From Escherichia coli (GTDB taxonomy: Bacteria > Pseudomonadota > Gammaproteobacteria > Enterobacterales > Enterobacteriaceae): DNA of 64,000 bases. Numbering within the stretch: position 1 is the first letter of the stretch; the number at the start of each line of letters is the position of its first letter. The translations under genes and the position numbers were made by a program. This document shows, piece after piece, positions 61,149 to 61,224 of this stretch. The notes beneath the pieces are model-generated. The model did not search any database and was not told the DNA's origin. It worked only from the letters and a program-made list of their open reading frames with translations. Where the stretch lies: NCBI RefSeq assembly GCF_003334305.1, contig NZ_QOWS01000025.1; one strand, written 5' to 3'.

Positions 61149-61224
61149 TGGTGGAGCTAAGCGGGATCGAACCGCTGACCTCTTGCATGCCATGCAAGCG
61201 CTCTCCCAGCTGAGCTATAGCCCC
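61149..61224 (-). tRNA. alaX: tRNA-Ala (anticodon GGC)
   Basis: Reverse complement is GGGGCTATAGCTCAGCTGGGAGAGCGCTTGCATGGCATGCAAGAGGTCAGCGGTTCGATCCCGCTTAGCTCCACCA (76 nt, GGC anticodon, G3:U70 Ala identity pair); coordinates cross-checked against the overlapping ORF-track frame. Confidence 0.93.

Follow-up and report, generated by a model that had tools for sequence, protein, structure and literature searches.

Escherichia coli K-12 carries two identical tRNA-Ala(GGC) genes in tandem, alaW and alaX, between the genes pdeA and yfeC, whereas only one such gene is found at the same site in the E. coli DNA analysed here, a stretch of 64,000 nt which we call the window. This raises the question of whether the single gene results from the loss of one copy from a tandem pair, represents an ancestral state that preceded a duplication, was imported from another strain, or is a tandem pair that was collapsed during assembly.

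Only one alanine tRNA was detected in the window by ARAGORN, which found three tRNAs in total (Table 1). Its anticodon is ggc (position 34), and its cloverleaf structure is supported by a match to Rfam RF00005 at positions 61152-61224 on the minus strand (63 bits compared to a gathering score of 29, E = 2.7e-11). At the DNA level the gene reads 5' GGGGCUAUAGC...UAGCUCCACCA 3' on the minus strand. The corresponding tRNA, deduced from the reverse complement of positions 61149-61224, has the termini 5' GGGGCUA...UAGCUCCACCA 3' and contains both a G3:U70 pair and the 3' CCA. The G3:U70 pair is a determinant of alanine identity in tRNA.

The putative promoter upstream of the gene matches the consensus at 11 of 12 positions, one such site being found in the consensus scan compared to 0.6 expected in shuffled sequences; its role as the tRNA promoter is predicted from these motifs. 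The -10 region is followed by the GC-rich sequence GCCGCCC, which is located ahead of the likely start site of the tRNA-Ala transcript. At the other end, the terminator hairpin begins 7 bases beyond the 3' CCA and extends with its T-run over 61141..61118. On the far side of yfeC, the window contains yfeD, gltX and then the first tRNA-Val gene of the valU cluster at position 63924. Thus, ARAGORN, Rfam and the consensus scan agree with an earlier, sequence-only reading of this DNA, which had described a single tRNA-Ala(GGC) gene with its own promoter between pdeA and yfeC, the promoter being a prediction.

Table 1. Coordinates of features in the 64,000-nt window
Feature	Position	Strand	Source and remarks
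MFS transporter gene, csc cluster	18297-19544	-	A7 annotation
Kinase gene, csc cluster	19616-20530	-	A7 annotation
cscA	20747-22180	+	A7 annotation
LacI-family regulator gene, csc cluster	22188-23183	-	A7 annotation
dsdX pseudogene, 5'-truncated	23426-23644		A7 annotation; adjoins the csc cluster together with dsdA
pdeA (yfeA)	58752-60941	-	ORF list and strain A7 annotation; left neighbour of the tRNA-Ala gene
Predicted intrinsic terminator	61108..61141	-	Terminator scan; 10-pair hairpin AACCCTCGCTGCAAAGCGGGGGTT, then TTTTGTCTCT (T-run)
81-bp segment, AAATT plus tRNA	61144..61224		Perfect direct repeat in two-copy genomes; would hold the deletion junction
tRNA-Ala(GGC), single gene	61149-61224	-	ARAGORN; 76 nt including the encoded CCA; sequence equal to both K-12 copies
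Putative sigma-70-like promoter	61285..61257	-	TTGACA, 17-nt spacer, TATGAT; upstream of the tRNA-Ala gene
yfeC	61445-61804	+	ORF list, A7 and K-12 annotations; right neighbour, divergent from the tRNA-Ala gene

In a pairwise alignment the window and K-12 are collinear except for one gap of 115 bp, with one SNP in a total of 291 aligned bases. The gap corresponds to exactly one repeat period, namely one 76-bp tRNA gene and one 39-bp spacer, which are present in K-12 and missing from the window. In all other respects the K-12 alaW-alaX (alaWX) operon is the same locus: pdeA and yfeC are kept on either side, the tRNA gene of the window is 100% identical to both K-12 copies, and the flanks match with the exception of one SNP, the sequences around the putative promoter and the predicted terminator being identical to K-12. 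Two tRNA-Ala genes at a distance of 115 bp are annotated both in an MG1655 derivative and in W3110. Annotations and alignment thus bear out the statement, in the earlier reading, that K-12 has two identical tandem copies, and the possibility that K-12 itself is single-copy at this locus does not apply.

The order of the two genes follows from Table 3 of PMC4678842 and from the W3110 record, whose coordinates place alaW next to the promoter and alaX next to the terminator. Upstream, the single gene of the window has the sequence that precedes alaW in two-copy genomes, and downstream it has the sequence that follows alaX. Table 3 of PMC4678842 gives alaW alone for W3110, and W3110 was therefore suspected to be a one-copy strain; this was ruled out by the two annotated genes mentioned above.

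A two-copy counterpart of the window was found in the best-ranked match, strain A7 (NZ_CP028767.1). Over positions 1-64000 there are no mismatches or gaps between the two, the sole difference being the 115-bp unit, and A7 has two annotated tRNA-Ala genes with a spacing of 115 bp. Using blastn, positions 28000-61224 and 61144-63999 of the window each matched A7 at 100%, the two matches overlapping by 81 bp, and the overlapping segment itself (61144-61224) aligns at 100% to both A7 copies. Nine complete E. coli genomes are 100.0% identical to the window over positions 40000-64000, and all of them span the additional 115 bp. The 30 closest genomes over these 24 kb do not include a one-copy genome, and the 5,426 complete RefSeq genomes do not contain a record that is both one-copy and identical to the window. 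Since the one-copy state is the only difference from a two-copy haplotype over 64 kb, it points either to a very recent event or to a difference in assembly.

An assembly artefact would mean that the strain truly has two copies and that the tRNA-spacer-tRNA loop at the 81-bp repeat was collapsed by the assembler. Such a collapse would yield exactly the sequence of the window, and it would be consistent with the otherwise complete agreement with A7 and with the absence of an identical one-copy record among the complete RefSeq genomes. Further, BL21- and K-12-lineage records show one, two or three copies, which could partly be assembly noise. However, ordinary 150-nt reads span the 115-bp period, repeats of this kind are expected on mechanistic grounds to undergo real deletions, and the one-copy state of O157:H7 EDL933 in four independent sequencing efforts (see below) shows that genuine one-copy alleles exist. 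We regard a collapse during assembly as unlikely, but as an explanation which has to be kept in mind.

The best explanation, which we consider probable, is a real deletion of one period from the alaW-alaX pair, giving a derived one-copy allele. The ancestral layout consists of one putative promoter, two identical 76-nt tRNA genes with the 39-bp spacer between them, and one terminator, and this arrangement creates the 81-bp perfect direct repeat with its period of 115 bp. Misalignment of the repeats would then lead to the loss of exactly one period, either by replication slippage or sister-strand misalignment, which would be RecA-independent at such a length, or by unequal homologous exchange. 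The product would be a monocistronic gene with the promoter and leader of alaW and the trailer and terminator of alaX. Three observations fit such a deletion: the gap equals one period, its endpoints are located inside perfect repeats without a scar, and the two-copy state is ancestral (see below). The junction falls somewhere within the 81-bp segment, which is the finest placement possible. Because both copies are identical, the surviving gene should be fully functional, and a halved gene dosage would be the sole consequence.

An 81-bp repeat with a 115-bp period would be a textbook substrate for slippage or sister-strand misalignment. Deletion and expansion at close direct repeats (<200 bp) in E. 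coli are described as largely RecA-independent in PMC7063769, which refers to Bzymek & Lovett 2001 and Bi & Liu 1994. The alaW-alaX repeats, with their length of about 80 bp and very close spacing, are of this type, and the loss of exactly one unit and the occurrence of both contraction and expansion in the population agree with it. The repeats in the cited work were studied in engineered plasmid or chromosomal reporters, whereas the pathway suggested for the window is deduced from its product, and the product of slippage would look the same as that of RecA-dependent unequal exchange. A further parallel is Pseudomonas fluorescens SBW25, in which, according to PMC7661048 and PMC10954465, tRNA dosage changed within the species via repeat-mediated events; those were large duplications (kb to hundreds of kb) selected in the laboratory, in contrast to the 115-bp contraction in the window.

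To determine the polarity of the change, outgroups were collected by an exact match to the 76-nt tRNA with one genome per GTDB species, which gave at least 120 loci, mostly from non-enteric Proteobacteria. Among the matches listed, 26 loci belong to Enterobacterales species, and these were analysed with ARAGORN and by tblastn with YfeC, YfeD, GltX and PdeA of the window. A tandem tRNA-Ala(GGC) pair was found in 23 of these 26 listed loci, and in 21 of the 23 the syntenic position was backed by tblastn matches to GltX, YfeC or PdeA. In E. albertii, the pair is located at the syntenic site and has the same period of 115 bp. The other tandem-pair outgroups are Citrobacter, Enterobacter, Klebsiella, Kosakonia, Pseudescherichia, Pantoea, Mixta, Rosenbergiella, Dickeya, Brenneria, Photorhabdus, Xenorhabdus and Acerihabitans. 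For E. fergusonii, two copies are listed in Table S1 of PMC4539685. Of the three exceptions among the matches listed, two lie at contig ends, and one is a true single gene in a metagenome-assembled genome.

These comparisons indicate that the one-copy state is derived and that the tandem pair is older than the genus. An ancestral single copy, duplicated later in K-12 and most E. coli, would be favoured by nothing beyond a few one-copy lineages. The pair at the syntenic site from E. albertii to Dickeya, Photorhabdus and Xenorhabdus speaks against it, as do the two copies in about 97% of E. coli and in the identical sister haplotype A7. This reading was thus rejected, and we assign it practically no probability. 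Of the two origins offered by the sequence-only reading, the collapse of the tandem repeat is favoured by the 115-bp period, the 81-bp repeat and the two-copy A7 haplotype, while the ancestral state is contradicted by the outgroup pairs.

The true single gene mentioned above belongs to Enterobacteriaceae bacterium Fux382_bin38 (positions 1792-1867) and is the only internal single tRNA-Ala(GGC) gene next to gltX among the 26 Enterobacterales loci listed. The same genome has a single tRNA-Val gene where its relatives have two to four. A reduced genome or repeats collapsed in the metagenome assembly could account for these single genes.

For the analysis of copy number across E. coli, it has to be considered that a plain BLAST listing joins two half-matches into one place, so that one-copy and two-copy genomes look alike. 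Therefore, a 276-nt query consisting of the tRNA gene with 100 bp of flank on either side was used at E <= 1e-100, a threshold passed by an uninterrupted match only. Arrays with at least three copies were detected with a synthetic spacer-tRNA-spacer query (E <= 1e-62), the full match of which needs at least three copies. One-copy loci were found in 133 of the 5,426 complete E. coli genomes (2.5%), all as single-piece matches, 130 of which cover at least 80% of the query. Three or more copies are present in 48 of the 5,426 genomes (about 0.9%), and about 97% of the 5,426 have two. The presence of both contraction (133) and expansion (48) alleles fits models of slippage or unequal exchange.

The tRNA alone as a query gave 10,782 places in the 5,426 genomes (minimum 1, median 2 and maximum 6 per genome). 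The above classes account for 2×5245 + 133 + 3×48 = 10,767 of them, which leaves at most about 15 copies located elsewhere or in longer arrays. Since only 15 places are unexplained, practically no one-copy genome makes up for the loss with a second copy at another site.

Compared to the window, the flanks of the one-copy genomes are between 100% and about 95% identical, and two-copy genomes occur on 100%-identical as well as on about 97%-identical flanks. One-copy examples are O157:H7 EDL933 and its relatives, Xuzhou21, KO11FL, UMNF18, several pig ETEC and many strains with flanks of about 95% identity. The occurrence of both states on several flank haplotypes argues for repeated independent events. 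In 19 one-copy genomes the match to the 276-bp flank query is 100% identical to the window. These strains could in principle have donated a one-copy allele through homologous recombination. However, donor SNPs would usually be expected in such a case, while there are none relative to the two-copy A7 over 64 kb; in addition, there is no one-copy genome among the 30 nearest over 24 kb, and a fresh deletion is simpler. An import is thus very improbable, and we retain the deletion of one period within the lineage of the window as the preferred explanation.

The one-copy state is on record in published genome comparisons. In Table S1 of McDonald et al. 2015 (PMC4539685), the number of genes for the GCC-reading alanine tRNA is one in EDL933, Sd197 and ED1a and two in the other 17 genomes, and many tRNA genes are reported there to differ by plus or minus one copy among strains. 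For EDL933, the single copy of the Sanger genome in that table was found again in three later independent assemblies, and the 276-nt query matches without interruption, which confirms the one-copy structure of the locus. O157:H7 Sakai, in turn, has both alaX and alaW (PMC4678842). At least in the EDL933 lineage, the one-copy state is thus a genuine and inherited trait, and the polymorphism is on record.

As in the window, the GCC-reading alanine tRNA is encoded by a single gene in EDL933, S. dysenteriae Sd197 and ED1a. EDL933 differs from the window in its genetic background, its flank being 99.6% identical. Because of this different background and because the nearest relatives of the window are two-copy, the loss in the window most likely was an independent event. 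A full-text literature search on alaW and alaX found no paper explicitly treating copy-number polymorphism, and Ala/GGC is not mentioned in an eLife 2023 paper on tRNA redundancy (PMC9981150). The allele of the window is an ordinary, common copy-number polymorphism, which is already known in kind and at the alaW-alaX locus.

Laboratory lineages also differ at this locus. A single copy is present in MC1061 (K-12) and BL21(RP), three copies are present in XL10-Gold, BL21(DE3) CP081489 and Rosetta2-DE3, and two in the records of W3110 and of the MG1655 type. This disagreement reflects either very fast flux with variation from stock to stock or assembly noise at the repeat. At short tandem tRNA repeats, different assemblies of one lineage give conflicting results.

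Insertion elements were seen around the one-copy locus of strain EC556 (NZ_AP027440.1). There, an IS200C is inserted towards pdeA, just past the terminator hairpin of the tRNA-Ala gene, at a site corresponding approximately to window position 61112, and a tnpA pseudogene of the IS200/IS605 family and an insQ/tnpB gene are found between yfeD and gltX. Strain EC581 gave the same shortened match as EC556 (query positions 64-276).

At the level of expression, each transcript should yield one tRNA instead of two after the deletion, which would halve the gene dosage of the GCC/GCU reader at this locus. The claim of the earlier reading that dosage is lowered is plausible in this respect, as the number of copies per E. 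coli genome is at least one, with a median of two, and almost no copies are located outside the alaW-alaX locus. The level of tRNA-Ala(GGC) would be expected to drop, with a nearly neutral outcome. According to PMC6103715, with reference to Näsvall et al. 2007, even a full knockout of tRNA-Ala(GGC) is partially rescued by tRNA-Ala(UGC) bearing cmo5U34, so that cells with the modified tRNA can dispense with tRNA-Ala(GGC). In view of this rescue, cells are expected to cope with a twofold cut in dosage, and any cost to fast growth should be small. The one-copy allele is probably harmless.

It is tempting to speculate that the alaW-alaX array serves as a fast, reversible dial of tRNA dosage, its copy number being selected by the niche or the laboratory regime, and that the state of the window is adaptive, but we consider this improbable. 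If it were true, contraction and expansion would have to be frequent, and translation of GCC and GCU codons would have to be affected enough for selection rather than neutral drift to act. Independent of this, the variation of tRNA gene counts within E. coli, with about 2.5% one-copy genomes and about 0.9% with three or more copies at this locus, has a practical side. Since tRNA copy number varies among strains, codon-adaptation indices based on the tRNA gene numbers of K-12 are slightly wrong for strains with other copy numbers.

The exact 76-nt tRNA-Ala(GGC) sequence is 100% conserved far beyond the enterobacteria: among the matches listed, it is present in Rhizobium, Bartonella, Sinorhizobium and Cupriavidus, and likewise in Polynucleobacter, Idiomarina, Rheinheimera and a Pseudomonas. 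One listed match lies on a contig assigned to a metagenome-assembled genome of the Holophagaceae, which may be mis-binned.

Elsewhere in the window, positions 17781-24990 correspond to what we take to be the known variable argW-dsd island. According to the A7 annotation there is no prophage beside the tRNA-Arg(CCT) gene argW (17781-17855), and a sucrose (csc) cluster is found instead (Table 1). K-12 presumably carries the CPS-53 prophage together with intact dsdC and dsdX at this island.

The window ends within a second tandem tRNA array, the valU cluster of tRNA-Val(UAC) and tRNA-Lys(UUU) genes located 3' of gltX (63924-63999 in the window), the copy number of which varies between Enterobacterales species. 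In six loci among the matches listed it ranges from two to four Val and from one to six Lys genes; for example, E. albertii has two Val and one Lys, and Photorhabdus caribbeanensis three Val and six Lys. This variation is the same tandem-array behaviour as that of the alanine pair.
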